In this document: one piece after another, positions 1,996-38,886 of the stretch | How the letters are laid out: every line of letters begins with the position of its first letter | How positions within the stretch are numbered: position 1 is the stretch's first letter | Source: a virus | Lineage: Duplodnaviria; Caudoviricetes | Reading direction: 5' to 3' (one strand) | Virus record (IMG/VR): IMGVR_UViG_3300022602_000025 | Length of the DNA stretch: 64,000 nt | The notes under the pieces: model-generated | What the model saw: only the letters and a program-made list of their open reading frames with translations | Told to the model about the DNA's origin: nothing | Databases searched by the model: none | Made by a program: the position numbers and the translations under genes

Positions 1996-1996
1996 A

Positions 1997-3230: not shown

Positions 3231-3231
3231 A

Positions 3232-4240: not shown

Positions 4241-4310
4241 TATTGTTATTTCCTCTATTAGTATTGATGTGTACTCACATCGTAGAACTATTGTAACACA
4301 ATCCTATACC

Positions 4311-4917: not shown

Positions 4918-4928
4918 AATTTGTTCCT

Positions 4929-4953
4929 TAAAATTGGGGGAACTAGTCCCCCA
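4929..4953 (-). terminator. intrinsic terminator-like hairpin
   Basis: TGGGGGA-CTAGT-TCCCCCA then ATTTT on the minus strand. Confidence 0.5.
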
Positions 4954-4957
4954 GTGA

Positions 4958-5365
4958 TCACATCAACGCTGAACCAACAGCTGCTTCTGCCTTGGCGATC
5001 GCCTCAGCTTCAGTCTGTACAGCTGCTTTCACAGTTGCTTGACCAGTTGCTGTCTTAGCTTTGGCCTGTGGCTTTTCTGCAACAGTCTTTGCCTTAGCTA
5101 CGGGCTTGGCCTTAACAACAGTTACCCCGCGTTTATCAGCGGCAGCTTCCAGTGCGGCTTGTACTTCTTTGTTACCGTTTGCGAAGTCAATGCTCATCAA
5201 ATAGGCAACAGCAGCTTCTTTGGTCATTGGCTCACGAAGCTCAACGATATCGATATCCTTGTGACCATTCTTAGCAAGTACTTTGACACGTAGCGCATCA
5301 TTGCAAAAACGTACCTTGAACTCGCCATTCTGACGTGAAACACCTGCATGTGTAAAAACTGACAT
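4958..5365 (-). CDS. hypothetical protein with Lys/Ala-rich (histone H1-like) C-terminal tail
   Basis: KAKPVAKAKTVAEKPQAKAKTA tail; SD and promoter upstream. Confidence 0.7.
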   Translation of the reverse strand: MSVFTHAGVSRQNGEFKVRFCNDALRVKVLAKNGHKDIDIVELREPMTKEAAVAYLMSIDFANGNKEVQAALEAAADKRGVTVVKAKPVAKAKTVAEKPQAKAKTATGQATVKAAVQTEAEAIAKAEAAVGSALM

Positions 5366-5446
5366 AACTAACTCCTTCTGTGTGTGTAAAAAATCTGTTA
5401 GAAACTTCTCTAACTGTTAATAGTATACTACCAAACTGCTCAAATG

Positions 5447-5605
5447 TCAAGCTGTTTGTTGTGGCTTTTCTGCCACAGTCAATCTAACCCAACCATCGAC
5501 GATCGCTCCCAAAGGTGCGGTGTCAACTCCTTCCCAATCGAGCTCATCGTCTGATAACTCGACTTCGTACTCGGGGTCCTCATAAACAACAGCGAATCTA
5601 CTCAT
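5447..5605 (-). CDS. hypothetical acidic protein (52 aa)
   Basis: not in track; MSRFAVVYEDPEYEVELSDDELDWEG...; stop TGA lies inside a promoter TTGACA. Confidence 0.55.
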   Translation of the reverse strand: MSRFAVVYEDPEYEVELSDDELDWEGVDTAPLGAIVDGWVRLTVAEKPQQTA

Positions 5606-5813
5606 CGTATGCTTCCTCTCCCATTTCAGTTACTTTCTCTTCCACAACGCCAAGATCGACGATGCGGGCTGTCTGCTCTTCATTGCTCACACCCTGGAAG
5701 GCTGTGCGGAATGACTGATTCTCAGCGAGGAAATCAAACACATCCTCACGCTCCCAGTTGTCAGGAACTTCGAGCTCTTGTGTTAAGAGTGTTTCAACTC
5801 GTACTGTTTTCAT
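5598..5813 (-). CDS. hypothetical acidic protein
   Basis: 71 aa; translational coupling with neighbours. Confidence 0.6.
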   Translation of the reverse strand: MKTVRVETLLTQELEVPDNWEREDVFDFLAENQSFRTAFQGVSNEEQTARIVDLGVVEEKVTEMGEEAYDE

Positions 5814-6292
5814 ACAGTCTCCTCCACGTTAACTGTCTTGAGAGCCTCTGTGAGAGGTACAAGACCTTCCTTAATTACGCCAGCTGTTTCATATACAGCG
5901 CCAGCGTACCATACTTCATCCTTCATGATATAGTAGTACTCAGCGCCACAGTTGTGAACCTGATCAAGGAACTCTTCAAATGTGTGTGCTACCTTCCAGC
6001 TAGTGTTTTCTTCGCCACGATCTCGACCGTAGAATGTGCAGGAGTCGCCGTGTTCCGTCTCAAATGCTGCCGCTTGATCTTCTGGGATATCCAGCTTGCT
6101 GAATGCGTGTTCGACCCCAATGTTAGCTCGCAGGCTACTCAAGTCTCCCAGCGCGACCAAGTTGTTGGCCTTTGTGCTATCGTAGTGCTCTTGCAGGATA
6201 GCGCCATTGTGTTCAAGATAGCCGTCCCAGTGACAGTATACAGACTTGACCTTGTCACCGTGCATAACGCCAATTCGTGATCTAGTTCCCAT
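5810..6292 (-). CDS. conserved phage hypothetical protein (MGTRS...YCHWDGY family)
   Basis: start moved to MGTRS after an AGGAGC SD; SVYCHWDGY...G..L..HY and EYYY motifs. Confidence 0.75.
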   Translation of the reverse strand: MGTRSRIGVMHGDKVKSVYCHWDGYLEHNGAILQEHYDSTKANNLVALGDLSSLRANIGVEHAFSKLDIPEDQAAAFETEHGDSCTFYGRDRGEENTSWKVAHTFEEFLDQVHNCGAEYYYIMKDEVWYAGAVYETAGVIKEGLVPLTEALKTVNVEETV

Positions 6293-6368
6293 TTCAGCTC
6301 CTAGTTGTTCAGTGTATGTGTAGTATAACACAAGGGGGCCTAAATGTCAAGCCCCCTGTGTTGCGTTA

Positions 6369-6728
6369 TTACAACGCCTCGTAGTTAGCCAATGCTTCGC
6401 TTGCAGTTGCGTCCAGCATTACCGCATCCAATGCTTTTTGGCGCTCTGCTTTTAGCGTTGCTTTGTAAGCGTCCAACTCTGCTTTCTTTGCTTCCATAGC
6501 AGGCCATACAACATCGTTCGGAGTTAAGTAAGCGTTAGTATTGTCCTCCGTGCCCTCTTTAAGCGTAATCTCGCCTGCTTTAATCGCCGCAAATACTGTG
6601 CCCCATGTAGGGCTCTCAGGGCGTCCAGCAGGGCCATAAAGCTCAGTTGCCTTTGCTTTAATTTTGTCAGCAGTAATCTCGTCCAAACGACGGATAAAGT
6701 AGTTGCGTTGTTCAGTTGTCATTTCCAT
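6369..6728 (-). CDS. hypothetical protein
   Basis: 119 aa; SD and promoter upstream. Confidence 0.7.
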   Translation of the reverse strand: MEMTTEQRNYFIRRLDEITADKIKAKATELYGPAGRPESPTWGTVFAAIKAGEITLKEGTEDNTNAYLTPNDVVWPAMEAKKAELDAYKATLKAERQKALDAVMLDATASEALANYEAL

Positions 6729-6787
6729 TTAAAGCTCCTTTGTGTTAAGTGTTTAAGTGCATAGTATAGCACAGGATTTACCAGTTG

Positions 6788-7003
6788 TCAAGCTCTAATT
6801 AATAACCCTACAAGGTAAATGGTTAATAGTGCACCGTTAATCACTATCAGATTCAGCTCGCGTATACGTACGGCCCATATCAAGTACAACAACGCCCCGA
6901 GATTCAGCAGCACAACGTTTGCTGGATCCAGTTTGAGAGCTGTACATAGAGCCCCTGCTAGTGTAACAGCACAAGCTGTCCACTTTAAAATATTATCTAA
7001 CAA
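6788..7003 (-). CDS. small multi-pass membrane protein
   Basis: three hydrophobic segments; SD GAGGAG; own promoter. Confidence 0.65.
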   Translation of the reverse strand: MLDNILKWTACAVTLAGALCTALKLDPANVVLLNLGALLYLIWAVRIRELNLIVINGALLTIYLVGLLIRA

Positions 7004-7055
7004 GGTACCACTCCTCTCACTGTAGCATATAGTATAGCACAGGTTTTACCAAATG

Positions 7056-7601
7056 TCAAGCCTTTGCGTAAAAAATGTGCTGCCCAATCCGTTGTATTTT
7101 CACAACACTCTTGGCCCAGACTGGCTCTTTGATGTAGTCAGCGTGGTAAAGGATGCTGTCCTTCAGGTTAGCCACGCGATAACCATCGGCTAGCACACTC
7201 CTGGCCACCTCACGGCTCTGAGTCCACAGCGGACCCTTAGGCTGGGCATAACGCTGTTTCTTGTAAAGAGTCCATGAGAACTGACTAGGGGCATACACGA
7301 CCTTACAGATGTTATGACCCCACCGTCCATCGCGCAGCCTATTCAGGGTGACCTGAGCAACAGCGAACTTACCTAGGGTTGGTTCAACTCCTGCTTCGTG
7401 ATAGATGTTCTTGGCCAAGCAGTCTTCATCAGCCTTCGTGTAACTGATACGATCGTTCGTCTTGATGATGTAGGCCTTGATATCCTGAACATCCTCATGG
7501 ACAGACTCGATCTCCATCTGCTGGAAACCAAGAACCGCCACAGCGACGGTTCCGGTTATGATCGTAGTGAGTTTACTCACTGTCGGCCTCCATAGACTCA
7601 T
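7056..7601 (-). CDS. cell wall hydrolase, SleB/Hydrolase_2 family, with N-terminal hydrophobic anchor
   Basis: CLAKNIYHEA, AVAQVTLNR, VVYAPSQFSW, YHADYI, IGQHIFY; start at 7601 or GTG at 7580. Confidence 0.88.
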   Translation of the reverse strand: MSLWRPTVSKLTTIITGTVAVAVLGFQQMEIESVHEDVQDIKAYIIKTNDRISYTKADEDCLAKNIYHEAGVEPTLGKFAVAQVTLNRLRDGRWGHNICKVVYAPSQFSWTLYKKQRYAQPKGPLWTQSREVARSVLADGYRVANLKDSILYHADYIKEPVWAKSVVKIQRIGQHIFYAKA

Positions 7602-8151
7602 ACTCAGCCATAGTCTCTGAAATGCCAAACATCTCGTCAAGCACAGCAGGGATCTCATCAACAACAGCATCACTTGAACCTGGCAACTCGTAGAACTCAT
7701 CGTTACCGTTGTCCCAGATGCCTGCAAAGTTCATGCCTGGCTCGTAGTAATAAGCACGGACCTCAAAGCCTTGCTCAACCAATGCTTCATACACACCAAT
7801 AGGTGGACTCCACGCACTATCAAAGCACAGGGTCGTATTGTCCTGGCCTTCTTCAAGCTCGATCTGATCACCGTCACCACCACAGTCCCACTTGGTGCCC
7901 CACTCATTAACGCAGAAGTCATACCAAGTCTTGTAACCGTGTGTCTCAAGATTACGCTTCTCTTGTGCTTCAAGCTCGATCTGTTTAGGATCATTGTCAT
8001 CACCTACGCGACCAGCCACGATATGAAGATCTGAAGGCACTGGAATAGCATAGGAACAGAACTTACCATCATTGTAAGCCTCAACGAGGGCCTTGAGTTT
8101 AGCAGGATCTTTGTGTGCGATCTCTACTGTGTTATTGCACCAATTTGGCAT
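7573..8151 (-). CDS. DUF1281/YubB (Api92-like) ferredoxin-fold protein
   Basis: MPNWCNN, WYDFCVNEWGTKWD, FDSAWSPP, YYEPGMNFAG. Confidence 0.75.
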   Translation of the reverse strand: MPNWCNNTVEIAHKDPAKLKALVEAYNDGKFCSYAIPVPSDLHIVAGRVGDDNDPKQIELEAQEKRNLETHGYKTWYDFCVNEWGTKWDCGGDGDQIELEEGQDNTTLCFDSAWSPPIGVYEALVEQGFEVRAYYYEPGMNFAGIWDNGNDEFYELPGSSDAVVDEIPAVLDEMFGISETMAEYESMEADSE

Positions 8152-8160
8152 ATCGTCTCC

Positions 8161-8364
8161 TTAAGCAAATACGGGTTTAGAAAGAATCTCGTCCTCTACC
8201 AACTGGTAACAGGCGTTGAGAGTCAGTTGCATGATCAAGTAGGCCTGGGCCTTCTCTTTGGCATTCATTGACTCAACATACTCCTGCAACTCTGGAAGAG
8301 TCTTAGTTGCGAACAATCCACTGCGTGGGATTGGGTTTTGGACTGCATCATAGATACCGCTCAT
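8161..8364 (-). CDS. hypothetical protein
   Basis: 67 aa; SD and promoter upstream. Confidence 0.65.
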   Translation of the reverse strand: MSGIYDAVQNPIPRSGLFATKTLPELQEYVESMNAKEKAQAYLIMQLTLNACYQLVEDEILSKPVFA

Positions 8365-8649
8365 TTTCTGCTCCTTTTCGTTTAGTGTATGTGTATATTA
8401 TAGCACAGGTTTTACCATTTGTCAACCGTGGGTGACTTCAGTGTTTTTCAGGGCCTCGTGACGCATGACGTAGAAGCGGAACAACAAGTTAGGATCTACA
8501 CGGATATCACCATCCTCGCTATTGTCGTCTAGATCTGCCCCTAGAAGGATTTCAATGGCCAACTCGCCGAGTTCTTGTCTAGTCATTTTCTGCTCCTTTT
8601 CGTTTAGTGTATGTGTATATTATAGCACAGGTTTTACCACTTGTCAACC
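8361..8649. repeat. 67-bp direct repeat (1 mismatch) covering promoter, leader, SD and ATG, flanking one small gene
   Basis: 8361-8427 vs 8583-8649 differ at one position (T/C). Confidence 0.95.
8422..8586 (-). CDS. hypothetical protein (54 aa)
   Basis: not in track; MTRQELGELAIEILLGADLDD...; SD AGGAGC; stop TGA inside TTGACA. Confidence 0.65.
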   Translation of the reverse strand: MTRQELGELAIEILLGADLDDNSEDGDIRVDPNLLFRFYVMRHEALKNTEVTHG

Positions 8650-8982
8650 AATAGTTGCCAGCTGTTGCGTTTCTGCCACATGCTTACAAGTGCCTCGGAA
8701 CTTGAATCCCGGGCATGTGCAGGTCTGAGCTGCTGTATCCACCTCGTAGACTTCGCCCTTAGAACCGGTCACCGTCTTTGTGCTCGCTGCAGCGACTGGG
8801 GCGAACTCTTTGACCTTAACAAATGTTCTCCTACGCAGATCGAACCTCAATGGCTTGGCAAAGACCTTGTGTTCGTTAGATCCAGCCATCACATAGGCAT
8901 GACAGTTGTCACCTTCCATCAAGTAGAGATGGTTGGGTGTGGCTTCATCCCACACCGTAGTTTCACGCATCCACTTCATCAC
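8644..8982 (-). CDS. SWIM zinc-finger protein
   Basis: YEV...CTCPGFKFRGTCKH. Confidence 0.8.
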   Translation of the reverse strand: MMKWMRETTVWDEATPNHLYLMEGDNCHAYVMAGSNEHKVFAKPLRFDLRRRTFVKVKEFAPVAAASTKTVTGSKGEVYEVDTAAQTCTCPGFKFRGTCKHVAETQQLATIG

Positions 8983-9242
8983 ATGCTCCAGTAGGCTTCT
9001 GAACTAGGCGAACAATAGCGAGGAGTATCATAGCGTTCCTGATACTCTGCTCCGCCCATCAAGTTGGTGCGGGTCACATAGGTCTCGTAGATCTCAAAGC
9101 GGTAACCTTTGCTGGCAGGATACTTCTTAGCATAGACCTCTGCGATAGCTGCGCGGTCTGCTGTGGAATGATCTACCTTGCGATCCAATCGTTCTCCCGT
9201 CTTCTTGCGGGCATCCTTTTTGTAAAGTTCTACTGTATACAT
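8979..9242 (-). CDS. conserved phage hypothetical protein
   Basis: start moved to MYTVEL; ERYDTPRYCSPSSEAYWSM C-terminus. Confidence 0.7.
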   Translation of the reverse strand: MYTVELYKKDARKKTGERLDRKVDHSTADRAAIAEVYAKKYPASKGYRFEIYETYVTRTNLMGGAEYQERYDTPRYCSPSSEAYWSM

Positions 9243-9299
9243 CTTGCTCTCCTTAGTGTCTAGTGTATAGTATAACACAGGTTTTACCAAAGGTCAACC

Positions 9300-9333
9300 A
9301 AAAAAACGGGGTGTTGCATATAAACAACACCCC
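9300..9333 (-). terminator. intrinsic terminator
   Basis: 9-bp stem GGGGTGTTG/CAACACCCC then a run of 7 T on the minus strand. Confidence 0.8.
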
Positions 9334-9437
9334 ACAAAGGCCAACGTTGCGTTGACCGGAGCAATTAATCAAACCAACCCTCCCTGGGATGCTACAAGGT
9401 AGCTTATCATCGTTTGACCCAGGGTGGGCGGTATCCT

Positions 9438-9758
9438 TTAGTCCAGTCTACTACCAGCATAGGCCTTCAAGCCCAACTTGGTTAGGTACTCTGCGTAGGC
9501 ATAGGCGCCTGCTTCTTTGACTGAAATGCTCTGTGTAGGGATGCCTGCTGGGTCCCACATGCTAAGGCATTTGGGTTTGTAGTCCTTGCGGAAGCCTGCG
9601 GCCAATAACTCCTTAGCCTGCTTTGAATTGGTGCGATCCACATAGACCTCAACCCAACCAAAACCACATGCATCACGCTCGCCGACTTTCGCGTACATTG
9701 CCTGGCCAGCTTGCTCGGCAAAAACCTTACCTGCTTTGATGAATTCTGCTGTAACCAT
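9438..9758 (-). CDS. conserved phage hypothetical protein
   Basis: start MVTAEF; DACGFGWV...QSISVKEAGAYAYA...GSRLD. Confidence 0.7.
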   Translation of the reverse strand: MVTAEFIKAGKVFAEQAGQAMYAKVGERDACGFGWVEVYVDRTNSKQAKELLAAGFRKDYKPKCLSMWDPAGIPTQSISVKEAGAYAYAEYLTKLGLKAYAGSRLD

Positions 9759-9801
9759 TTTCAACTCCTTTAGTGTATAAGTGTATAGTATAGCACAGGT
9801 T

Positions 9802-10494
9802 TTACCGCTTGTCAACCACTGAATGAATACGGATTACGAATCCAGTGGTGTCCTTCTTAGCACGGCCCTTGGCCTTCAAGCCAATGATGCCCACTTTGGG
9901 ATCTAAGAAGCGTAGGTCCGTCTCGTCCGCTGAGAACACTCCCTCTGGGATCTCATCGTAGACCACTGCCACGTTCATGCCCTGAGCAACAGCCTTAGGC
10001 ACGTCTGCTGCGTTACCATCAGCGCGGCTGAACGTGAGATGATAGTTCTTTAAGTGGGCGACCTTGCGTCCTAGTACTTTAGTATAGTCATAGAACTGTA
10101 CTTCAGGAAACTTTTGGATGATACCGTACTTTTCCCACGCAAGATCACTCGTACCATTCAGACGAAACACTGGCTTCAATCCCTGCTTTTCAGCGAACTT
10201 GATGCCCTTGCGGATGTCAGCCTCTAGATCACGTAAGAACCCCTCGCGATCATTAAAGAAGTATTCAGTCTTACGTATACGAGCCTTTTGGATAGCATTC
10301 GTATTCTCACCCTTCTTAAACATGCCTCCACGTCCGGCGGTATTGAGGCAAGCGGCAGTGCAGCCAGCTGTACGTTTGGGGCATACTTCTCGACCGCTTA
10401 GATCAGCGGGCGCCAAATGCAGGATGAATGACAAGTAACCTAGCTTAGTACCCTTTTGGATCTTAGGGTTCGCAGTGCTTAATAGTTTGAACAT
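9802..10494 (-). CDS. GP88-like (gene product 88) protein
   Basis: HLAPA, VCP..TAGCTAACLNTAGRG, RLNGTSD, QFYDYTK, NYHLTFS, DETDLRFLDP. Confidence 0.75.
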   Translation of the reverse strand: MFKLLSTANPKIQKGTKLGYLSFILHLAPADLSGREVCPKRTAGCTAACLNTAGRGGMFKKGENTNAIQKARIRKTEYFFNDREGFLRDLEADIRKGIKFAEKQGLKPVFRLNGTSDLAWEKYGIIQKFPEVQFYDYTKVLGRKVAHLKNYHLTFSRADGNAADVPKAVAQGMNVAVVYDEIPEGVFSADETDLRFLDPKVGIIGLKAKGRAKKDTTGFVIRIHSVVDKR

Positions 10495-10554
10495 CGTTGC
10501 TCCTTTTTAGTGTATGTGTACATTGTAGCATAGGTTTTACCACTTGTCAACCCC

Positions 10555-10728
10555 TTATGCTGTACAAATGCCTCTCTCGATAAGATCACGTGCTGTACGG
10601 CCGAACCATCCCTGGAGGCTCCAAGCCATGCCAGTGTCAATCAAGTGCTGCCAAGCAGCTATGATCTGATCTTCTGATTCAGCTTCAACGAAGCCCTCTG
10701 CTATGCCTACTGCTGTATATGAGTCCAT
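10555..10728 (-). CDS. conserved phage hypothetical protein (57 aa)
   Basis: not in track; AWQHLIDTGMAWSLQGWFGRTA; SD and promoter upstream. Confidence 0.7.
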   Translation of the reverse strand: MDSYTAVGIAEGFVEAESEDQIIAAWQHLIDTGMAWSLQGWFGRTARDLIERGICTA

Positions 10729-10798
10729 TGTCGCTCCTTTCAGTTAACTAGCCATAACTATAGCACAGGTTTTACCAGTTGTCAACCGAAAACATCCT

Positions 10799-10849
10799 TG
10801 CGCAAAATATTGCGCAAAACCCTGTAAAATGCGCAAAATATTGCGCAAA
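10799..10849. repeat. two 20-bp direct repeats TGCGCAAAATATTGCGCAAA (four TGCGCA palindromes)
   Basis: 10799-10818 and 10830-10849 are identical. Confidence 0.9.
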
Positions 10850-10889
10850 TAACAGGATAAAAAATGGGCACCCAAAGAGTGCCCTAGGG

Positions 10890-11093
10890 TTATCTCAAAC
10901 GGACCCAGCCGCAGAAGTTCTCGTAGTCGTATACAACATTGTCGCTATAGACTATGAGCCCGCCTATGTCCTCGCCGTCTGCTACATGAAACTCCCGTTC
11001 AAAACGCTCTGTAAGCGTCTCAATTGGGTCCTCAATGCCCTCGTAAGCATAGCGAACGCTGGGATGTGTATCGTTAATCCAATCTATATTCAT
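10890..11093 (-). CDS. hypothetical acidic protein
   Basis: 67 aa; SD GGAGC; promoter upstream. Confidence 0.65.
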   Translation of the reverse strand: MNIDWINDTHPSVRYAYEGIEDPIETLTERFEREFHVADGEDIGGLIVYSDNVVYDYENFCGWVRLR

Positions 11094-11281
11094 ATAAGCT
11101 CCCTGTAGTGTTTAAAGAACGCAGTAATAACTTCTTACTGTATGTGTACATTGTAGCATAGGTTTTACCAGTTGTCAACCACTTCATGAAAATGACCCTA
11201 TGCAGCAGTCGGGTATTAAAAAAGCAGTTGACATTTTGGACAAGTGACAGTATACTACACATACACTAAAGGAGCGACACT

Positions 11282-11479
11282 ATGCTAACAACTAAACAAT
11301 TTAAACAGCTGCAAGCCCGCATCCTAGCAGATGCAAAACAATTAACTAATGTAGCTAACGACAATGACAACGAGCAGCGTATGCTTGCTATTATAATGGA
11401 CGTGTGCGAGCTAGCGCAAAGTTTCGATTATAATGTACGGGACATGCTAGAGACAGCCGAAGACATCGGAATGTACTAG
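11282..11479 (+). CDS. hypothetical protein (divergent early gene)
   Basis: 65 aa; promoter 11228-11256, SD AAGGAGC, terminator after. Confidence 0.7.
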   Translation: MLTTKQFKQLQARILADAKQLTNVANDNDNEQRMLAIIMDVCELAQSFDYNVRDMLETAEDIGMY

Positions 11480-11484
11480 CACTG

Positions 11485-11543
11485 GGGGTGGGTCCCCTGA
11501 CTCTGCCAGCTCAGGTCAGGGACCGCTCGCCACTCCTCTTTTT
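11485..11543 (+). terminator. long hairpin/terminator after the divergent gene
   Basis: GGTCCC(C)TGAC/GTCAGGGACC stem, outer GGGGTG/CACTCC, then TCTTTTT. Confidence 0.55.
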
Positions 11544-11580
11544 CTGAGAGTATGGAACCGCTGACGACGGTAGGCAATTC

Positions 11581-11696
11581 ACAGTGATTACGCAATGATA
11601 TCTCACGATATGGCTAGGACTAGGTCCCGGGCTTAGGTTGACAGAGCTAGATCCTGACGTCAGTTCTCACCTAGAATCCTCAACTTCGATCACTGT
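11581..11696 (-). ncRNA. candidate structured non-coding RNA (unknown class)
   Basis: closing stem ACAGTGAT/ATCACTGT, inner GTTGA/TCAAC, palindrome CTGACGTCAG, ATATC-GTGA-GATAT GNRA hairpin on the minus strand; 10 nt downstream of the tRNA. Confidence 0.35.
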
Positions 11697-11706
11697 TACG
11701 GCTAAC

Positions 11707-11785
11707 TGGTGGGCCTCCCGTGAGTCGAACACGGCACCCAACGATTATGAGTCGTTTGCTCTAACCAGACATGAGCTAGAGGCCC
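11707..11785 (-). tRNA. tRNA with CAU anticodon, Ile2-type (lysidine) more likely than Met
   Basis: GGGCCTC acceptor stem, GCTC/GAGC D stem, AACGA-CTCATAA-TCGTT anticodon arm, CCGTG-TTCGACT-CACGG T arm, encoded ACCA; resembles proteobacterial ileX. Confidence 0.93.
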
Positions 11786-11804
11786 TATACTATATATTAT
11801 ACAC

Positions 11805-12680
11805 TCATTTCTTCACAGCGTACATGAAGTTTTGGGGAATTTGCCCGCCGGCTTGGAAAGGTGCGTGTGAGCTCATGCCCGCTGACTGACCCCTCATTTT
11901 AAGCGTTTGCTGTGCAGGATTCACCCTTTGTGGATCAGTCGTAGGTAGATCCGCGGGCACCCAAGTCCATTGACTGTGCTGTACGGGCGTTAGATCCCAT
12001 CCGCTCCTACGTATCCAGTAGAGATCAGGTCCTTCTATCCCCATTTGATCAATGATGTTAGCGTATACAGAGTCCACACATACTACAGCGGCAGCTGCTT
12101 CGATGGCACTGATCCAGTCCCAGATATTGTCAGTACGTGCTCGGATCTCTATGATCTCTGCAGCGGGGTATTGCTCACTTAGCCACCCTAGATCTATATC
12201 GGCCCTGTGTGTGCTGCCCTCTAGGTGTACTAGCACATATTCTCCCTTGACTCCCAGCGATTCAGTCAGCTGACTCTCACGAGCAGGATCACGTGTGATG
12301 CACTCTGACAACCGCCACTTACGACCAAAGGGCACTCCCGCGATCGCATACTTGTACTGATCAAACTTTAACAAACTGAAGAACTCTGGATCAGTTAGAT
12401 CTGGACGGGTGTTTAAGTACTGATATAAGTATAGGTTCTCGTTGGGATCACAGCCCGCTTTCATCAACTCCTGCAGCGGGGTCTCTAGGAAGAACTTACC
12501 AGCAGCGTCCGTCTCTATAGGAATCCAAGAGACCCACGGTGCAGAGTCTTTAAACGACTCATAGAACTCTACACATATGGGCCACACGATCTCATCACCT
12601 TGATCCGCATAATACTTCGCGATTGGTAATGCTATTACTATATCCCCTAGACCTCTCGACTGTATAATACCTCTCTTCAT
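11805..12680 (-). CDS. GT9-like (heptosyltransferase-family) glycosyltransferase
   Basis: QSRGLGDIVIALP, VLVHLEGS, W..AIEAAAAVVCVDS..AN. Confidence 0.75.
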   Translation of the reverse strand: MKRGIIQSRGLGDIVIALPIAKYYADQGDEIVWPICVEFYESFKDSAPWVSWIPIETDAAGKFFLETPLQELMKAGCDPNENLYLYQYLNTRPDLTDPEFFSLLKFDQYKYAIAGVPFGRKWRLSECITRDPARESQLTESLGVKGEYVLVHLEGSTHRADIDLGWLSEQYPAAEIIEIRARTDNIWDWISAIEAAAAVVCVDSVYANIIDQMGIEGPDLYWIRRSGWDLTPVQHSQWTWVPADLPTTDPQRVNPAQQTLKMRGQSAGMSSHAPFQAGGQIPQNFMYAVKK

Positions 12681-12826
12681 TCATATATCCTTGTATAATT
12701 GAGCACATTACCTGCGCCATACTGTGCTTCACCTAGCTGTTTAGCATGATAGTCTGAATCAGCGAATACTACTGTGTTAGCAGTCTGCAGCTGATTGATA
12801 CGCACCCACAATTGATATTTGTACAT
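12677..12826 (-). CDS. small conserved phage protein (49 aa)
   Basis: not in track; MYKYQLWVRINQLQTANTVVFADSDYHAKQLGEAQYGAGNVLNYTRIYE; ATGA overlap with the GT9 gene. Confidence 0.65.
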   Translation of the reverse strand: MYKYQLWVRINQLQTANTVVFADSDYHAKQLGEAQYGAGNVLNYTRIYE

Positions 12827-12966
12827 ACTAGTGAACCTTTCTTAGTTATAGTGCAGCGGGGTCTTGTATATAGTATACTGATCCTACTGTGTATACGCAA
12901 TATTATACTGGAATTACCGTAGAAAGTCAACGGAAATGTTGTGGAGATCGGTGAACCACTGTAGGA

Positions 12967-13041
12967 AATCTGGTCCAGAATGAGTCAAATCTGGCTCAGA
13001 ATAGGCTCAAATTGGCGCCGTTTTGGTTCAGAATCTGGTAA
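12967..13041. repeat. seven imperfect 10-11 bp tandem units (consensus close to RAATCTGGYTCA) next to an AT-rich tract
   Basis: aatctggtcca gaatgagtca aatctggctca gaataggctca aattggcgccg ttttggttca gaatctggtaa. Confidence 0.6.
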
Positions 13042-13336
13042 AAATACTAGGAATTTAAGGTAAAAAAATTTTTGGAGAGTGTGGTCGTGACAGACTATGC
13101 TAAATGGTTCCAACCATTTTTCCCATTCTTTCCCCCGGGCGCCGCCAGCCCTGACTCACCCTATCAACTATCTTCTATTAGTGAGAGAGTATCGTAGATA
13201 CGATCCTTTGCAGCGGGGTCTTGCACACTAGACTATCGAGACTGTATAATAGTCACACACATATACATATACATCAAGTTAGAGTCACTGTGCGTAGCGA
13301 AATTAAAGCACGTATACACAGAGATAATTACTGTAT

Positions 13337-13537
13337 ATGTTATATCACTGTTATCGTAGTTACTTGCCATTACAAGAAGGCGATGCTCTATCACTAGCTG
13401 TACAGCGAGCGGGTGGTTGGATGCACATACGCAGTCTAGACTGTGTGGATTATCTAGTGCCCGAGACTCGTTCTTCACTAGTATATTTGTATGACTCTAG
13501 GGCGGAAAGAATACCTAAATTAGACTACATACAGTAA
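13337..13537 (+). CDS. hypothetical protein
   Basis: 66 aa; promoter-like TTGCAC-N18-TATAAT at 13221-13250. Confidence 0.55.
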   Translation: MLYHCYRSYLPLQEGDALSLAVQRAGGWMHIRSLDCVDYLVPETRSSLVYLYDSRAERIPKLDYIQ

Positions 13538-13545
13538 ATATCTGT

Positions 13546-13803
13546 ATGCGTTACTTGGTTGATCATCCTGTACAACCTTACTTTCCACATATAGCACTAG
13601 CTCCGTGGCCCATATCATATCGTGAACAACAAAGCGATTGGATTGAAACTATAGGCGTATTAGAAGAGTGGTTGAAGTCACATGTAGGCAGTCACTATAC
13701 CGCTTGGATCTACGCTACAACTAGTGAGCAGGAATCGTGGCAGGCCTGCATAGCTTTCAGTCAAGCCAAATACAAATCCTTATTCTTATTACGTTGGGCT
13801 TAA
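13546..13803 (+). CDS. hypothetical protein
   Basis: 85 aa, Trp-rich; TAAATA-N5-ATG. Confidence 0.65.
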   Translation: MRYLVDHPVQPYFPHIALAPWPISYREQQSDWIETIGVLEEWLKSHVGSHYTAWIYATTSEQESWQACIAFSQAKYKSLFLLRWA

Positions 13804-14015
13804 CTTTGTTTGTATATCAAATATACTAGAGCTAGTTCTGCTGCGCCTAGTATCAATAAGCTAATCCACATTACGATTCTCACGCGAGTTTCTGAGTTCA
13901 TACTAGTATATAGCTCTTTTGCCTGCTGAGGGCAAAATTTTGCGCTCTGCGCTGCCACTTCGTGGGAAATCTTTGTTGGACTCTCGGCTCTGAGGTTTTA
14001 CCATTAAATAGGCAT

Positions 14016-14192
14016 ATGACTCGTTCAATCAAGTGTTATGCTTATTATCCCGTGCGGTTGACATCGGGGGCTTGTGTATGTGATTGTGTTTATTGGATCG
14101 TGGGACTGGATCAGCATTGGGTCGCTACTCATCATACACAGCTACTATCAGAACGGGAATATGTTCTGCACCTGCTGACTGTTACTGTATAA
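14016..14192 (+). CDS. hypothetical protein (58 aa)
   Basis: start moved to the ATG 5 nt after TAAATA. Confidence 0.5.
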   Translation: MTRSIKCYAYYPVRLTSGACVCDCVYWIVGLDQHWVATHHTQLLSEREYVLHLLTVTV

Positions 14193-14445
14193 GTGGACGG
14201 TCGGGGTCGTCTGAACCAATAGCTGGGCGTGGGGGAGTTGGTGCAGGTGCTACTTCAAAGGCTGCGATACGACTCTTATACGCTTCTATGTTCTTAGTCA
14301 CGCGAGCTAGGGCACGTTCTATGTCTGCGATGCGTCTAGGATTGGGTACAACTTCGCCCTGTTGTTCTTTTAAGTAGCGAGTCAACTTCATCTGCTCAAA
14401 CTCTAGCATCTTGATATGACCACGGATTTTGTTTAAGTTATACAT
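14182..14445 (-). CDS. hypothetical coiled-coil protein
   Basis: 87 aa; TAAATA-N5-ATG. Confidence 0.65.
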   Translation of the reverse strand: MYNLNKIRGHIKMLEFEQMKLTRYLKEQQGEVVPNPRRIADIERALARVTKNIEAYKSRIAAFEVAPAPTPPRPAIGSDDPDRPLIQ

Positions 14446-14534
14446 ATGACTATTTAGGTCGAGTCAGCAGTTAGGTCTGTGGTTCTGGTTCTTAGATAAT
14501 TAAGTGTACAGATATTTTACATTAAAGGAATCCA

Positions 14535-14729
14535 ATGTTAAAACCAACAGCAAACTTCAAGATGCCCAAAGAATACAAACGCTGGGCCGCTACTTACGTA
14601 GATAAAGCTGCTCGCCGCAGTTTCCTAAACGATATGGTACAGGCCGTGCTACAAAGCCAAATCGCTCCACCACGCAAAGAAAAGCGAGCATCTGCACCTA
14701 ACCCTACAGCTACAACTTCAGAAGAGTAA
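14535..14729 (+). CDS. small basic hypothetical protein
   Basis: 64 aa; SD AAGGA. Confidence 0.6.
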   Translation: MLKPTANFKMPKEYKRWAATYVDKAARRSFLNDMVQAVLQSQIAPPRKEKRASAPNPTATTSEE

Positions 14730-15256
14730 TGAGTCTACACTGGGCTGGCACTATCAAACACCGTGATGTCGTATGGGCTGAGCAATTAGCACAGCTAGGT
14801 CAGGGCCAGCAGGGCACGATTGATCCTGAGCAATCTGAACAGTGGACTGAATGGGGGCATGACCCTAGTACAGTTGAATGGCTAGAGTGGGACTACGCAG
14901 CCCTATACCCCCAGACCCTAGCCCTCATAGCTAAATGGACTAACCTTATACCCAGGTTCGCTACCCTAACTTGTTTGAAACCCGGGGGTATGGTACCCTT
15001 CCGCAGTCTACGGATAACCCGAGCACAAGAATGGACTAGGGTACCCGGACAGCTGATCAAACGCTATACCATATGGGTCAACCCTAAGACGCCTGGGCAA
15101 GTATGGATGCTGGATGCACTGGGTCAGCAGACCCTGAGCCAGATACCCGAGGGTGACTGTTGGCTATGGGAAGATTGGACCAAGCCCTGGGCCCAGATAA
15201 ATCTAAGCGATCAGGACTTTTGGCTACTAGACTTTGTGGGTACTACTAGACTATGA
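14729..15256 (+). CDS. degenerate 2OG-Fe(II)/cupin oxygenase paralog (Fe ligands absent)
   Basis: aligns by eye with 25275 and 40826 (LKPGGMVP, RYTIW, PGQV, W.W, IN) but HxD and the distal His are replaced. Confidence 0.55.
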   Translation: MSLHWAGTIKHRDVVWAEQLAQLGQGQQGTIDPEQSEQWTEWGHDPSTVEWLEWDYAALYPQTLALIAKWTNLIPRFATLTCLKPGGMVPFRSLRITRAQEWTRVPGQLIKRYTIWVNPKTPGQVWMLDALGQQTLSQIPEGDCWLWEDWTKPWAQINLSDQDFWLLDFVGTTRL

Positions 15257-15654
15257 TCAACTTTCACGGCAACTATAACTTTATTGATTGGAATTGGCTA
15301 ATTGATCAGTTAAAGGATCAGCAGGCTCAAGATAATCAGTATGAGCTAGGGGGTATACTAACCCCCGAGCAACAGCGGGCTTATGCTGACTATTGTGGCA
15401 TCAGTGACTACTCACGCTGTTGGGTTATTAGGATTGACCCAGGGCAGACATACACAGACTCAGGTGCTATGGGTAAGGGTCCTAGGGCTCATACACACAT
15501 GGCTCCTTGTGATCCCGGACACGTATGGTTCGCTGACGGGTTTAACTTTTACAACAAGTTCCAGGGCGATACGTTCAAATGGTCCAAAGCTGATTTGCCC
15601 CTACGTGCGGGCAACTGTGGGCGTATACCCATGTGGATTATGAATGTGGCCTAG
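15253..15654 (+). CDS. degenerate 2OG-Fe(II)/cupin oxygenase paralog
   Basis: IDW N-terminus, WVIRIDPGQ, PGHV, GDTFKW, AGNCG; no HxD...H. Confidence 0.5.
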   Translation: MINFHGNYNFIDWNWLIDQLKDQQAQDNQYELGGILTPEQQRAYADYCGISDYSRCWVIRIDPGQTYTDSGAMGKGPRAHTHMAPCDPGHVWFADGFNFYNKFQGDTFKWSKADLPLRAGNCGRIPMWIMNVA

Positions 15655-16087
15655 ACTGTAGCCACTTATCTAAAAGCCAACTGCTAGAATTAGCTTTTGT
15701 AGTACCCCCAACACCAAACTCAAATCTTAGCCTAGGATCCACTAGGGTCATTTCTGGCACATTGTCTGCACCACGATCGCCCCCGTTGGCAAATATGATC
15801 TGATCGTTAGGGTATAAGGCTAGCACGTTGCGTATGGCTTCTATGGCTGTGTCATCGTTGTCATTGAATAGGATAACTCCATCTACAGCTCTAAGGTTTT
15901 CTAAGATTATCACACGCTCCGGGATGGGCAAGAATGCGGCACCCTTTTTACGAGTTAACCACGCATCTGAATTGACACCTACTATTAGTCTATCACCCAG
16001 GGCCCTAGCAGAGTTTAGTAACGCAATATGGCCCGAATGTATAGGGTCAAAGCCGCCTGTTACTAGAACTGTAGTTGATGTGTGCAT
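15638..16087 (-). CDS. cytidylyltransferase-family nucleotidyltransferase (RfaE/TagD/RibL-like)
   Basis: TGGFDPIHSGH, LIVGVNSD, R..ILENL..VD, FANGGDR. Confidence 0.88.
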   Translation of the reverse strand: MHTSTTVLVTGGFDPIHSGHIALLNSARALGDRLIVGVNSDAWLTRKKGAAFLPIPERVIILENLRAVDGVILFNDNDDTAIEAIRNVLALYPNDQIIFANGGDRGADNVPEMTLVDPRLRFEFGVGGTTKANSSSWLLDKWLQSRPHS

Positions 16088-22715: not shown

Positions 22716-23793
22716 CGAACTACAACAAGTACACTTAGAGATATCTTCTCTATGTCAAGCCAGTTGCCCTATGTGTGCAAGGAATAACCACGGCGGGTTA
22801 CCCAATCCTAACTTACCAGAAAAGAATCTCAGTCTAGACTTTTATAAAAAGATACTACCGCCTGAACTACTAAAGCAATTAGTATCTATATCTATGTGTG
22901 GTAACTTTGGCGATCCTATCATGAACAATGATTTGATTGACATGATTAGACATACAGCAGAACATAATCCAAACATTGATATTCATGTGCATACAAATGG
23001 TAGTGCTAGAACAAAGCAATGGTGGATTGATCTAGCACAAGCATTACCTAAGAATCATCTAGTGCTATTTGGTATTGACGGCTTAGAAGATACACACAGT
23101 TTGTATCGTGTTGGTACTAACTGGAAAAAGATTATAGAAAATGCAAAAGCATTTATAGGTGCAGGTGGTAAAGCTCGTTGGAACTTTATTACATTTAGAC
23201 ACAACGAACATCAGTTAGAAGCATGTCGTCAAATGAGTAAAGACTTAGGGTTTGACAGCTTCCAAGAAAAGCAAACAAGTCGCTTTATTGGTAATCCATA
23301 CTTTGAAGTATATGATAAACTAGGTAATGTTACACACAAGTTAGAACAGCCTAATGAACAGAAGTTAGTGTTTATTGATCGCAAAACTGTAGAGAACTAC
23401 AAAGAAGTATTTTCTAAAGCAACAGTTAAGTGTGAAGTAGAACAATGGCCTAGCGTATATGTAGATGCACAAGGACACTTATATCCTTGTTGTTTCTTAG
23501 GTAGTGTTCCTTATCAGTATTCAACTCCAGATAGACTAGTGTGGAACTTTATGCAAGAAAGCACAGGCGGTCTGTTAAAGAAACTAGAAGCCTTTGGTGG
23601 ACTAGACGGATTAGATCTTAACAAGCATGATATGAAAGATATCATTGATAGCGAAGTGTGGCAGACTATGTGGGATAAGAGTTTTGATAACAACGAAATC
23701 CTTATGTGTGCTAGAGTCTGTGGCAAGTTTCCAGAACCTGTGATCAGTCAGTGCAGAGATCAATTCTTAGACTTAGATACCTTTATGAGTTAA
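22702..23793 (+). CDS. radical SAM protein with C-terminal SPASM/twitch-like domain
   Basis: CQASCPMC, CGNFGDP, HTNGS, C...VYVDAQGHLYPCC, CARVCG. Confidence 0.9.
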   Translation: MYKYNELQQVHLEISSLCQASCPMCARNNHGGLPNPNLPEKNLSLDFYKKILPPELLKQLVSISMCGNFGDPIMNNDLIDMIRHTAEHNPNIDIHVHTNGSARTKQWWIDLAQALPKNHLVLFGIDGLEDTHSLYRVGTNWKKIIENAKAFIGAGGKARWNFITFRHNEHQLEACRQMSKDLGFDSFQEKQTSRFIGNPYFEVYDKLGNVTHKLEQPNEQKLVFIDRKTVENYKEVFSKATVKCEVEQWPSVYVDAQGHLYPCCFLGSVPYQYSTPDRLVWNFMQESTGGLLKKLEAFGGLDGLDLNKHDMKDIIDSEVWQTMWDKSFDNNEILMCARVCGKFPEPVISQCRDQFLDLDTFMS

Positions 23794-23794: not shown

Positions 23795-24592
23795 ATGGAA
23801 TACGGCACAGTTAAATGGTACAACGATAGCAAAGCACAAGGAGTCATTAATGCGCTTGTCAGTGGCTATTCTGTGTATGTGTCTGCTGAGGATATAGTTG
23901 ATGCACAATATCTGTGCGAACATCAATTCGTATCTTTCTATACAGACACTGATAGCATGGGCACACGTATTGCTAGAAATGTAAAGATCATTCCTGTTAA
24001 AGAAACAGTACTATGCGAAGTACCTCGTATCAGTGTATTTGAAAATGTTATTCCTCCTGAATACTGTAAGTCTCTTGTGAACTATTACAATCAAGCAGGT
24101 ATGAATCCTAACTCGGGATATGTTAGCCGTGAGCAAGCAAGCGGACAAGTAACTGAACTAGTTGAGCAACGTGGAATCAGTAATGGCATGTTGCCCGTCC
24201 ATGTAAACTATCTTGCAGATCTAATACACAATACAATACGTTTGCCATATAGTCATATAGAAGCTATTGATATCTACAATTATGAAGTAGGGCAATACTT
24301 AGATCTACATCACGACTATCCTTATGATCCTACACTCATACCTTATTATAAGAACGGCGGAGATCGAGTAGGCACAGGCATCTTTTGGCTGAACACAGAC
24401 TACGAAGGTGGCGATACATACTTCCCACAACTAGATGTTAATGTAAAACCTACACTAGGCGGATTCCTATACTTTGAACAAGGATACGATGAAGCAACCA
24501 ATTGGAAAACAATACACGAAAGCACTTTGATTACTAAAGGAACTAAATGGATATCAGCTTGTTTCTTTGCTAATCAACCTAGAGTAAAATGA
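23795..24592 (+). CDS. cold-shock domain fused to prolyl-4-hydroxylase-type 2OG-Fe(II) oxygenase
   Basis: GTVKWYNDSKAQG...QFVSF...ARNV; YEVGQYLDLHHDY, GGDTYFP, HES..ITKGTKW. Confidence 0.85.
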   Translation: MEYGTVKWYNDSKAQGVINALVSGYSVYVSAEDIVDAQYLCEHQFVSFYTDTDSMGTRIARNVKIIPVKETVLCEVPRISVFENVIPPEYCKSLVNYYNQAGMNPNSGYVSREQASGQVTELVEQRGISNGMLPVHVNYLADLIHNTIRLPYSHIEAIDIYNYEVGQYLDLHHDYPYDPTLIPYYKNGGDRVGTGIFWLNTDYEGGDTYFPQLDVNVKPTLGGFLYFEQGYDEATNWKTIHESTLITKGTKWISACFFANQPRVK

Positions 24593-25278
24593 TATTAGAT
24601 AACTGGACACCTTTCTGGAAAATAGATAGCGAGGATCATACACGTTGTATGGCACAGCAAACCTACGAACCTTTAATCAATCCAGAACGTACAGTATTCT
24701 GTGCAAACTACGATTGGGCTAACAAATATCAACGACACGAAGATCCTGTTAGAGAAAAGTATACACAAGAAGTTGTTGATTGGTTTTGGGAAAATGAATT
24801 ATATCATATTCTTAAGTACCAAGACAAAGAGTATATGCCTAAGGTAATAGACGTTGATCACGATAAGCGTAGAATATTCTTTAGATGGCAAGGTGAGACC
24901 TGTAATGAAATTATATATTCTGGTCGTAACCTAGATGATTACTGTCCTACATGGCGAGAGCAAATTAAGCATATCTTTGTTGACCTGCATAACGAAGGAA
25001 CTTATAAATTAACAATGTATCCTCACTGTCATTACATAGAAGATGGACAGATTAAAGCGATTGATTGGTATGGATGTATTCCTGTAACTAATCCTTTAGT
25101 TGATGCAAAGTACATGGATGGCATAGTACATGAAACAGCTAAGTTCCGTTTAGCTGAAACAGGCGCACTAATAGATAACAAGTATAATCTAGAAACAATG
25201 TTTAAGCGTTCTATGAGCGAACATGTTACTTGGGGCAACCAATCTATGATGTATATCTATAACGAGATATTCAAATGA
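24589..25278 (+). CDS. protein-kinase-like fold protein (atypical)
   Basis: ENE..., MPKVIDVD, MYPHCHYIEDGQIKAIDW; paralog of 34457. Confidence 0.55.
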   Translation: MILDNWTPFWKIDSEDHTRCMAQQTYEPLINPERTVFCANYDWANKYQRHEDPVREKYTQEVVDWFWENELYHILKYQDKEYMPKVIDVDHDKRRIFFRWQGETCNEIIYSGRNLDDYCPTWREQIKHIFVDLHNEGTYKLTMYPHCHYIEDGQIKAIDWYGCIPVTNPLVDAKYMDGIVHETAKFRLAETGALIDNKYNLETMFKRSMSEHVTWGNQSMMYIYNEIFK

Positions 25279-25850
25279 AGTTTATAGCAAACACAGATAA
25301 TCTTATCAATTGGAATAACGTAATTGAGTTATGCCAATCAAGCACTACGGGTGATAAGAATACAGTTAGTTCTGTTGTAGATAGAAGCGAAGCAGAAGCT
25401 GTAGGCAATCGCGGATTATTAGATTCATATAGAAAAGTAATAGGCACATGGCAACAAGCAGGATACGACCTAAATCAGATAGAATGGTATGATTACTATC
25501 CTGGAGAACATTTTGATATCAGTGTACAAGATACGTTTGCTAAACTAATAGGTGCAGAACCGTTGCGTGTGTTTGTTAGTGAAGTATATCCAGGAGTTAC
25601 TATTCCTTATCATTGGGACGTAGAAGATAAAGAAGAAGAATGGTTAGCTGAGTACGGTATGCTATATCGATATGTATGTTGTATGGATGTACCTAAACCC
25701 GCTAGCGTACTAATGTTCGATACTGAAGCACTTACATTAAACACACAAGGCGATATCTACGAATGGAATCATTATAAAGATTTCCATAGTGCTGTTAACG
25801 GTAGCGACAGCCCACAATACTATTTTCATTTCTTAGGATATAAAAAATGA
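25275..25850 (+). CDS. 2OG-Fe(II) oxygenase (AspH-like cupin)
   Basis: VYPGVTIPYHWD...FHSAVN. Confidence 0.8.
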   Translation: MKFIANTDNLINWNNVIELCQSSTTGDKNTVSSVVDRSEAEAVGNRGLLDSYRKVIGTWQQAGYDLNQIEWYDYYPGEHFDISVQDTFAKLIGAEPLRVFVSEVYPGVTIPYHWDVEDKEEEWLAEYGMLYRYVCCMDVPKPASVLMFDTEALTLNTQGDIYEWNHYKDFHSAVNGSDSPQYYFHFLGYKK

Positions 25851-26362
25851 AATACTTAGGTATATGCGATATAATAGATTGGGATAGTGTAATCAAATCA
25901 CTAGAACATCAAACACCTACATACATTGGACCTAGCCACAAGTTAGGAGATCCTATTCCCGGACTAAGCGAAGTAACAGATATATGGCAACGTGCTAAGT
26001 TTGGAGCCAATGCTGAATGGGATATGTTTATATCTGGTGATGCTTTTGATATATCTATCGCAGAACAGTTTATGGACTATGTGGGCATAGACAATTATAA
26101 TACCTGTTGGATCAGTAGAATACGTCCAGGTAAGATGGCACCCTGGCATTGGGATGTAAATGATAATGAAGCAGAGCTAGGAGAGTTCCGTAGGTTCCAT
26201 TGTCATATTGGTAAACCTGTACATGGACATGTATTAGTAGTAGATGATAAATGTTTATACAATCAGCCGCAGGGATCTACTTACGAGTGGAATAGTAGAA
26301 AGTCTTGGCATGCAGGAATGAATGCAGGACTTACTCCTAAATATCTTTTTAACATTTGGTAA
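25847..26362 (+). CDS. 2OG-Fe(II) oxygenase (AspH-like cupin)
   Basis: IRPGKMAPWHWD...WHAGMN. Confidence 0.8.
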   Translation: MKYLGICDIIDWDSVIKSLEHQTPTYIGPSHKLGDPIPGLSEVTDIWQRAKFGANAEWDMFISGDAFDISIAEQFMDYVGIDNYNTCWISRIRPGKMAPWHWDVNDNEAELGEFRRFHCHIGKPVHGHVLVVDDKCLYNQPQGSTYEWNSRKSWHAGMNAGLTPKYLFNIW

Positions 26363-26365: not shown

Positions 26366-26539
26366 ATGACACCGATTACAGATACATTTTATATTGAAAA
26401 GTTTATGGAAATACAACAGCAGAATGTTGTTATGTATAAACTATTGCTTAAGATAAACGAGTCGCCTAAATTAAAGGAACAAGTTGAATTGGAATTGGGC
26501 GTTAACATCTCTGATGTGATTAAGAATTGCCCTGCGTAA
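26366..26539 (+). CDS. possible small protein (57 aa)
   Basis: not in track; MTPITDTFYIEKF...; overlaps the sulfotransferase 3' end convergently. Confidence 0.35.
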   Translation: MTPITDTFYIEKFMEIQQQNVVMYKLLLKINESPKLKEQVELELGVNISDVIKNCPA

Positions 26540-30758: not shown

Positions 30759-30802
30759 GCGAATATTTATGGTCATTATAGTAGCATATAAATATTCGCA
30801 TG
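30756..30802. repeat. perfect 15-bp inverted repeat forming divergent late promoter/ATG units
   Basis: CATGCGAATATTTAT-N17-ATAAATATTCGCATG. Confidence 0.92.
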
Positions 30803-38857: not shown

Positions 38858-38886
38858 TATAGTAGTACTTATCTATAAATATCGGC

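Follow-up and report, generated by a model that had tools for sequence, protein, structure and literature searches.

In the 64,000-nt stretch of DNA analyzed here (the window), which belongs to IMG/VR record IMGVR_UViG_3300022602_000025 (Duplodnaviria; Caudoviricetes) of an uncultured T4-like water phage, one open reading frame (ORF) joins a genuine cold-shock domain (CSD) fold to an intact Fe(II)/2-oxoglutarate (2OG) oxygenase domain of the prolyl 4-hydroxylase (P4H) type, an assignment well supported by sequence comparison and a predicted structure. In the reading that we favor, to which we assign a probability of roughly 45%, the gene encodes an active P4H-type protein hydroxylase that works within a phage gene module, and its CSD would be an ancestral nucleic-acid tether that is degenerate in the window copy. 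The gene and its parts are as follows.

23795-24592, plus strand: CSD-P4H fusion gene (P0001), 265 amino acids (aa), defined from the ORF list, Pfam, homologues and an AlphaFold2 (AF2) model.
23795-23992, plus strand: CSD, residues 1-66, with the fold retained and the RNP1 and RNP2 motifs degenerate.
24023-24589, plus strand: P4H-type Fe(II)/2OG double-stranded beta-helix domain, residues 77-265, identified by profile, Foldseek and VIA comparisons.
24308-24316, plus strand: codons of H172-H173-D174, the HxD iron ligands, invariant in 86 sequences and opposite H-Y-D of the Bacillus anthracis P4H (BaP4H).
24515-24547, plus strand: codons of residues 241-251, beginning with the distal iron ligand H241 and ending with the 2OG-binding Lys, K251, 10 residues on, both invariant and opposite 'tlHgg...GeKW' of BaP4H.

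The ORF starts with an ATG at 23795, one base past the TAA (23791-23793) that closes an upstream radical SAM gene, and its stop codon, included in the ORF, is at 24592 and overlaps the start of the following gene, K1 (24589). An alignment of 86 family members (A2) was the source of the family profile, of the column counts and of the AF2 model. The model of the whole protein had a mean pLDDT of 89.3 and a pTM of 0.84, with pLDDT values of ~95 across the N-terminal domain, and both domains formed one confident body in which the linker pLDDT was >90. A PHROGs search returned the same two assignments as Pfam, namely a CSD and a 2OG oxygenase. An earlier note on this DNA had proposed that a CSD and a P4H-type dioxygenase share one ORF and that the latter carries a complete HxD...H...K set. 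Pfam, the family profile and the AF2 model confirmed the first point at exactly the same coordinates, and the second also held, since H172/D174, H241 and K251 were all invariant and aligned with the ligands of BaP4H.

The Pfam family PF13640 (2OG-FeII_Oxy_3) matched residues 160-258 with 30.9 bits, above the curated cut-off of 27 (E 5.5e-7), and PHROG 61 ('2OG-Fe(II) oxygenase') matched with an E value of 7.7e-14. The HxD...H facial triad (H172, D174 and H241) and K251 did not vary among the 86 sequences, and in the family-profile alignment the HxD, the distal His and the Lys of the window protein lay opposite those of BaP4H. In 2OG oxygenases, the C5 carboxylate of 2OG is bound by a basic residue 10 positions after the distal His, which is Lys in P4Hs; K251 is a basic residue at this distance, opposite the Lys in 'GeKW' of BaP4H. 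When the family profile was compared with PDB sequences, it matched BaP4H (5hv0) with an E value of 4.6e-27 over positions 71-266, and a Foldseek search with the AF2 model found BaP4H (5v7y/5hv0) with an E value of 5e-14. VIA comparisons of the predicted model gave Z scores of 20.0 for the Chlamydomonas P4H (2jij), 19.0 for BaP4H (5iax), 18.2 for PBCV-1 vCPH (5c5t) and 18.0 for human C-P4H-II, whereas the AlkB, ALKBH and TET entries listed scored 12.3-14.1, as against 18-20 for the protein prolyl hydroxylases. No AlkB or TET_JBP Pfam family was detected in the window protein at E values up to 0.01; the fold is common to all of these enzymes and is compatible with such chemistry. The intact ligands and the fold predict that the gene encodes a catalytically competent Fe(II)/2OG hydroxylase of the P4H type.

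Among characterized enzymes, BaP4H (3itq, 5hv0, 5iax, 5v7y) was the best match in both the sequence and the Foldseek searches, with 25-29% identity. Its HxD...H...K ligands are those of the phage family, and in both the Lys follows the distal His by 10 residues. However, BaP4H is a cellular enzyme without a CSD, and the phage family has an invariant segment of its own, MNPNSG..SR.E....VTE.VE.RGIS, where BaP4H differs. The substrates of BaP4H are collagen-like peptides and EF-Tu; the phage enzyme resembles it in sequence and predicted structure. The algal Cr-P4H-1 (2jig/3gze) and PBCV-1 vCPH (5c5t) had top structural scores (Z 20.0 and 18.2) and have the ligands and the fold in common with the phage enzyme, which vCPH also resembles in being virus-encoded. 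Both differ in having no nucleic-acid-binding domain, and they act on proline-rich repeats, none of which was found in the window.

At the N-terminus, the Pfam CSD family (PF00313) matched residues 3-64 (profile positions 2-64 of 66) with an E value of 1.2e-3 and 19.2 bits, short of the cut-off of 27. Individual relatives cleared this cut-off with 38-42 bits. When residues 1-68 alone were compared with PDB sequences, cold-shock proteins made up 19 of 20 among the matches listed, the best being CspB 5jx4 (E 0.005), and the family profile matched solved CSDs with E values of 6e-12 to 1e-8 over positions 1-65. The AF2 model predicts five strands (2-10, 15-20, 26-30, 45-52 and 58-65) that form a five-stranded antiparallel OB barrel, and its residues 2-68 superposed on Mycobacterium tuberculosis CspB (9xw3) with a Z score of 11.9 and a root-mean-square deviation of 1.4 Å over 65 residues; a CSD of Unr also superposed on this segment (Z 11.7). 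The earlier note had described ~65 CspA-like residues and had named, as what would speak against this, an N-terminus that fails to score or fold as a CSD. The relatives' scores, the profile and the superposition indicate that it does both.

The motifs on the binding face are a different matter. RNP1 of the window copy reads K13-A-Q-G-V-I18, as compared with K-G-Y-G-F-I in CspB, and departs from the pattern K-G-[FY]-G-F-I; RNP2 reads V27-Y-V-S-A31, as compared with V-F-V-H-F, and departs from that pattern as well. Alignment with CspB thus agreed with the partial loss of RNP1 and RNP2 aromatics (KAQGV, VYVSA) pointed out in the earlier note. Across the family, the consensus at the RNP2 position is I-I-A-E-K-W instead of V-F-V-H-F, while W8 is present in 85 of the 86 sequences, K13 in all 86, an aromatic residue at position 15 in 85 and one at position 17 in 83. 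Besides Q15 and V17, which stand where the family has Y/F and F, the window copy carries A31, E32 and T50 in place of the family-conserved K31, W32 and R50. Compared with the bacterial CspA/CspB proteins (PF00313), the phage domains have the five-strand OB barrel in common (1.4 Å over 65 residues), and the relatives retain W8 and an RNP1 of the form K-G-[YF]-G-F-[IV]; they differ in the RNP2 sequence (V-F-V-H-F in CspA/CspB, I-I-A-E-K-W in the family and V-Y-V-S-A in the window), in the absence of the RNP1 aromatics from the window copy and in never being free-standing in the phages. The window CSD was 34% identical to the other CSDs, as against 62% for the window P4H domain, and pairwise identity within the family was 48% for the CSD and 72% for the P4H domain, indicating that the CSD evolves faster. 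In a tree of the P4H domains, the window copy was long-branched and grouped, with good support, with P0002, P0003 and P0005, the last of which, one of its closest relatives there, lacks a CSD. Judged from these substitutions, the nucleic-acid-binding face of the window CSD appears to have decayed, and because it has lost both RNP1 aromatics, alone among the 86 sequences, together with three other conserved residues of the surface, this CSD is probably only a structural N-terminal domain. In the relatives, the conserved W8, K13 and RNP1 aromatics argue for a ligand-binding CSD, and the conserved RNP1 face argues that the ancestral domain bound single-stranded nucleic acid.

The fusion is recurrent. 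A large protein collection contained 142 homologues with 47-69% identity, most of them with both PF00313 and PF13640; the architecture recurred in >100 metagenomic protein clusters and at 80 loci in IMG/VR, and some family members came from Tara ocean samples. The T4 major capsid gene gp23 was present on four of the five large contigs tested, one of which is a 364-kb genome rated 100% complete. Among 1.84 billion representatives clustered at 50% identity, ~10 proteins reached an E value of 1e-30, and both domains were spanned there only by the family representative and one divergent relative, P0166. A tblastn search of 50,697 cultured-phage records found no fusion; it returned weak matches to the P4H domain only (24-35% identity; Erwinia phage Yoloswag and Syn9) and none to the CSD part. 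No relative was found in a pattern-based scan of 185,579 prokaryote species genomes, and full-text literature searches turned up no paper describing a CSD-P4H fusion, in agreement with the earlier note, which had not recognized the architecture as a described one. The architecture is thus recurrent yet restricted to a single uncultured lineage of T4-like jumbo phages, and is undescribed apart from automatic annotation.

A family-specific CSD profile was run on six-frame translations of all 80 loci. The CSD proved to be modular: it was fused to the P4H in 58 loci, fused to a glutathione peroxidase (GSHPx) in 14 and absent from 8; it was never a stand-alone gene. In the 14 loci, the CSD forms the N-terminus of a separate 240-257-aa protein encoded just upstream of a CSD-less P4H. 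The CSD of these proteins scored up to 42 bits, and the remainder is GSHPx (Pfam E 1e-29 to 1e-33), as in the following examples, which carry the motifs VVNTAS.CGLT and WNFHKYLI.

L037, 9366-10088: CSD-GSHPx gene.
L040, 8387-9115: CSD-GSHPx gene.
L039, 2384-3109: CSD-GSHPx gene.
L069, 9294-10013: CSD-GSHPx gene.

We know of no described architecture that joins a CSD to a glutathione peroxidase. Pairwise identity among the CSD-GSHPx proteins is only 43-56%, and they accompany hydroxylases from four different parts of the P4H tree, which indicates that the arrangement is old and maintained. An apparent CSD remnant at the start of the P4H genes in these loci proved to be a tblastn artefact; the genes begin cleanly at 'MKE...'. 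In the eight loci without a CSD (L070-L077), the P4H is more divergent (~55% identity) and the tail ORF described below is missing as well wherever the locus extends far enough. This joint absence may hint at a link, but it may also stem from a single evolutionary event.

These observations bear on a rival explanation, in which the phage uses the CSD as a Csp-type RNA chaperone of its own, independent of the hydroxylase and merely in frame with the next gene of a compact genome, while the hydroxylase acts untargeted in a pathway of the surrounding gene island. Each of three large genomes searched contained exactly one CSD, always at the CSD-P4H locus, and RNP1 is intact whether the CSD is attached to P4H or to GSHPx. 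Judging from the CSD-less loci, the P4H would function without a CSD in several lineages, and the faster evolution of the CSD also fits independent roles. On the other hand, a self-sufficient chaperone is opposed by the absence of any stand-alone CSD from the 80 loci, by the age of both fusions and by the AF2 model, in which the two domains and the linker form one confident body. We consider this explanation somewhat unlikely.

The gene context was established by tblastn of the window neighbours against the 80 IMG/VR loci. Five genes travel together, namely the hydroxylase gene and the four that follow it in the window.

24589-25278, plus strand: K1, small protein-kinase-like fold, in 76 of 80 loci.
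25275-25850, plus strand: X1, HxD...H protein that is paralogous to X2; 71 of 80 loci have it.
25847-26362, plus strand: X2, HxD...H protein, likewise in 71 of 80 loci; its resemblance to Asp/Asn beta-hydroxylases is no more than a lead.
26366-26539, plus strand: 'tail' ORF (57 aa), a homologue of the C-terminal extension carried by ~343-aa CSD-P4H relatives.

Two gene orders were observed. In 44 loci the order is P4H-K1-X1-X2-tail, as in the window, and in 31 loci it is K1-X1-X2-P4H, with the tail adjacent to the hydroxylase or fused to its C-terminus to give a protein of ~343 aa. The hydroxylase is always on one flank or the other of K1-X1-X2, whereas genes for an epimerase, an APS-kinase-like protein and extra radical SAM enzymes come and go. 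That the hydroxylase is kept beside K1-X1-X2 despite rearrangement is better evidence of a functional link than common descent alone would provide.

The AF2 model of K1 (pLDDT 92.8) matched protein kinases in Foldseek (E 2e-5, TM scores of 0.4-0.55) and, among other entries, the archaeal RNA kinase Ark1 (8yv5; TM score by target 0.55). Its Atlas neighbours include a bacterial cluster in which 20% of the members carry the Kdo/WaaP kinase family. K1 had no Pfam match and no match among the 50,697 phage records, and no significant match emerged when profiles of K1, X1 and X2 were compared with PDB sequences and Pfam. Many related loci contain a second, weaker K1-like match (21-28% identity) on the minus strand. 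X1 and X2 are tandem paralogues (hhalign probability 100%, E 1e-47) that have an invariant H-W-D motif and a later invariant His in common. Between 11 and 21% of the members of the Atlas clusters neighbouring X2 carry Asp_Arg_Hydrox (PF05118), and a weak PDB match of X2 to 'Beta-hydroxylase' (7v4f) had an E value of 1.1; X1 and X2 may be further Fe/2OG or cupin-type hydroxylases. In blastp, the tail ORF matched the C-terminal 60 aa of the ~343-aa relatives (P0066, P0092, P0105 and others) with E values of 1e-17 to 7e-8. Depending on the gene order, this short helical segment (26366-26539 in the window, ~10825-11029 in L050-L068) either stands alone as an ORF or forms part of the hydroxylase, and a role of the 57-aa protein as a partner or substrate is conceivable.

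The module lies in an island, strongly conserved across the 80 loci, of radical SAM genes, PP-loop and PLP genes, an epimerase gene and a methyltransferase-like gene. Within 22 kb (18035-40050), radical SAM genes number at least nine, and some have SPASM domains.

Radical SAM gene positions: 18035, 19324, 20225, 22702, 27045 (minus strand), 27928 (minus strand), 30800, 36483 and 38887.

The search of the 80 loci covered seven of these nine genes and showed all seven to be conserved. For T4-like environmental genomes from the sea, as many as 12 radical SAM genes have been reported (PMC5332604); these genomes may or may not be of the same lineage as the phages described here. Scans for sigma-70 promoters and terminators around the operon gave no more than was expected from shuffled sequence, and the T4 late-promoter word TATAAATA was not enriched in the window; two plus-strand copies of TATAAATA, at 30787-30794 and 38874-38881, lie 13 bases 5' of the radical SAM starts at 30800 and 38887. 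The G+C content shows a sharp step, from 44-48% in positions 1-16000, where the ORFs are short, to 35-41% in the radical-SAM-rich region 18000-52000. A tRNA-Met gene (CAT) at 11707-11785 on the minus strand is ~85% identical over ~85 bases to the tRNA region of jumbo phages of Escherichia coli and Salmonella (PBECO4, SD-2_S15), and in megablast the first 16 kb matched cultured phages nowhere else.

The neighbourhood also bears on what the hydroxylase acts upon. By analogy with the RRM-AlkB protein ALKBH8 and the TET/JBP enzymes, nucleic acid itself could be hydroxylated, at a base or ribose of phage DNA, tRNA or mRNA, with the CSD holding the single strand and the island serving as a hypermodification pathway. 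The conserved RNP1 face of the family would suit such a role; genes for PP-loop ATPases, PLP enzymes and radical SAM enzymes also occur in nucleoside-modification pathways, the K1 model weakly resembles Ark1, and the double-stranded beta-helix fold is common to AlkB and TET. However, the sequence and the predicted structure are clearly nearer to protein prolyl hydroxylases, no Pfam match links the protein to the AlkB or TET_JBP families, and the RNP1 aromatics are gone from the window copy, as is the whole CSD from several relatives with the P4H unchanged. Direct modification of nucleic acid therefore seems very unlikely. Several 2OG oxygenases are directed at RNA or the translation machinery, including ALKBH8, OGFOD1/Tpa1 and the Pseudomonas PPHD. 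The window P4H domain has its fold in common with PPHD-EF-Tu (4iw3, Z 15.8), OGFOD1 (Z 14.8) and Tpa1 (Z 13.3) in VIA comparisons. These enzymes show no close sequence kinship with the phage protein, and ALKBH8 has an RRM rather than a CSD and an AlkB-type fold; they are functional analogies only.

A small molecule or glycan intermediate of the island (a sugar nucleotide, or an intermediate of lipopolysaccharide type or nucleoside type) might instead be hydroxylated, the CSD being a leftover or regulatory. Such chemistry would be in keeping with neighbours that encode a nucleoside diphosphate-sugar epimerase/dehydratase, APS-kinase-like and sulfotransferase-like proteins and many radical SAM enzymes, with the Kdo/WaaP family in the bacterial cluster near K1, and with the nucleoside-antibiotic enzymes of P4H fold, PolD (Z 15.8) and PasI (Z 13.7), among the structural matches. 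We nevertheless hold it to be improbable, because peptidyl-prolyl hydroxylases are the best matches by a clear margin and because the epimerase and APS-kinase-like genes come and go between loci while the P4H stays with K1-X1-X2.

In the reading that we favor, the hydroxylase would modify a residue, most likely proline, of a protein or peptide, jointly with the other enzymes of the module. In the family ancestor, the CSD would have been a tether to single-stranded RNA or DNA that brought the hydroxylase, or GSHPx in some phages, to targets associated with RNA, for example a translation factor or the ribosome during translation; in the window copy, this tether would have decayed. A protein or peptide substrate is favored because the catalytic domain is nearer to protein P4Hs than to AlkB/TET, because the closest solved relative was deposited as modifying EF-Tu, and because the folds of the module partners, as far as can be told, are of protein-modifying type. 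The title of PDB entry 5v7y, in which BaP4H modifies EF-Tu, counts for translation-related targeting, and bacterial EF-Tu prolyl hydroxylases are cited in PMC6437050 (Scotti 2014, Schnicker 2017).

Several observations weigh against this reading. A search of the 64-kb window for collagen-like (GXY)n or proline-rich ORFs, as candidate substrates, found none. P4H-fold enzymes that act on small molecules (PolD and PasI) also match the model. Related phages owe part of their conserved gene order to common descent, and the protein-modifying nature of the neighbours is read from weak leads (the TM scores of 0.4-0.55 for K1, and PF05118 for X2 via neighbour clusters only). Nucleic-acid targeting by the window copy in particular is opposed by its Q15, found in no other of the 86 sequences, by V17, where 83 of the 86 have an aromatic residue, and by the loss of K31, W32 and R50. 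CSD-less forms occur at no fewer than four separate places on the P4H tree, which indicates that not all members require the domain, and in 14 loci the CSD is on GSHPx while the P4H stands alone, so that the CSD may do something quite separate from targeting the hydroxylase. That the CSD was lost repeatedly, was transferred to GSHPx and has decayed in the window copy indicates that the tether is dispensable, and in the window copy it is probably non-functional in the canonical sense. Of the interpretation in the earlier note, the architecture stands, being both real and rare, whereas on targeting to nucleic acid or the ribosome the evidence points both ways; the alternative offered there, a CSD repurposed for protein binding, may apply.

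A bolder proposal is that different enzymes of a phage redox toolkit share the CSD as a module for docking on nucleic acid. The CSD would deliver P4H or GSHPx to single-stranded RNA or DNA or to the translating ribosome, where the substrate of the P4H would be a nascent protein, a protein bound to the ribosome or even a nucleotide. We judge this to have a low probability. If true, it would mean a new class of RNA-tethered hydroxylase, with T4-like jumbo phages rewriting host translation or building a hypermodified product with the radical SAM island.

P4H-type oxygenases are common and unexplained auxiliary genes of aquatic T4-like phages. The recognizable targeting domain and the fixed partner genes described here make the substrate of one such oxygenase experimentally approachable, and the natural variants, with RNP1 intact, with RNP1 decayed as in the window, with the CSD on GSHPx and with the CSD absent, form a comparison series for the contribution of the CSD. 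If the tether proposed in our favored reading is real, this family would provide the first case, among phages, of a hydroxylase guided to RNA-bound targets.

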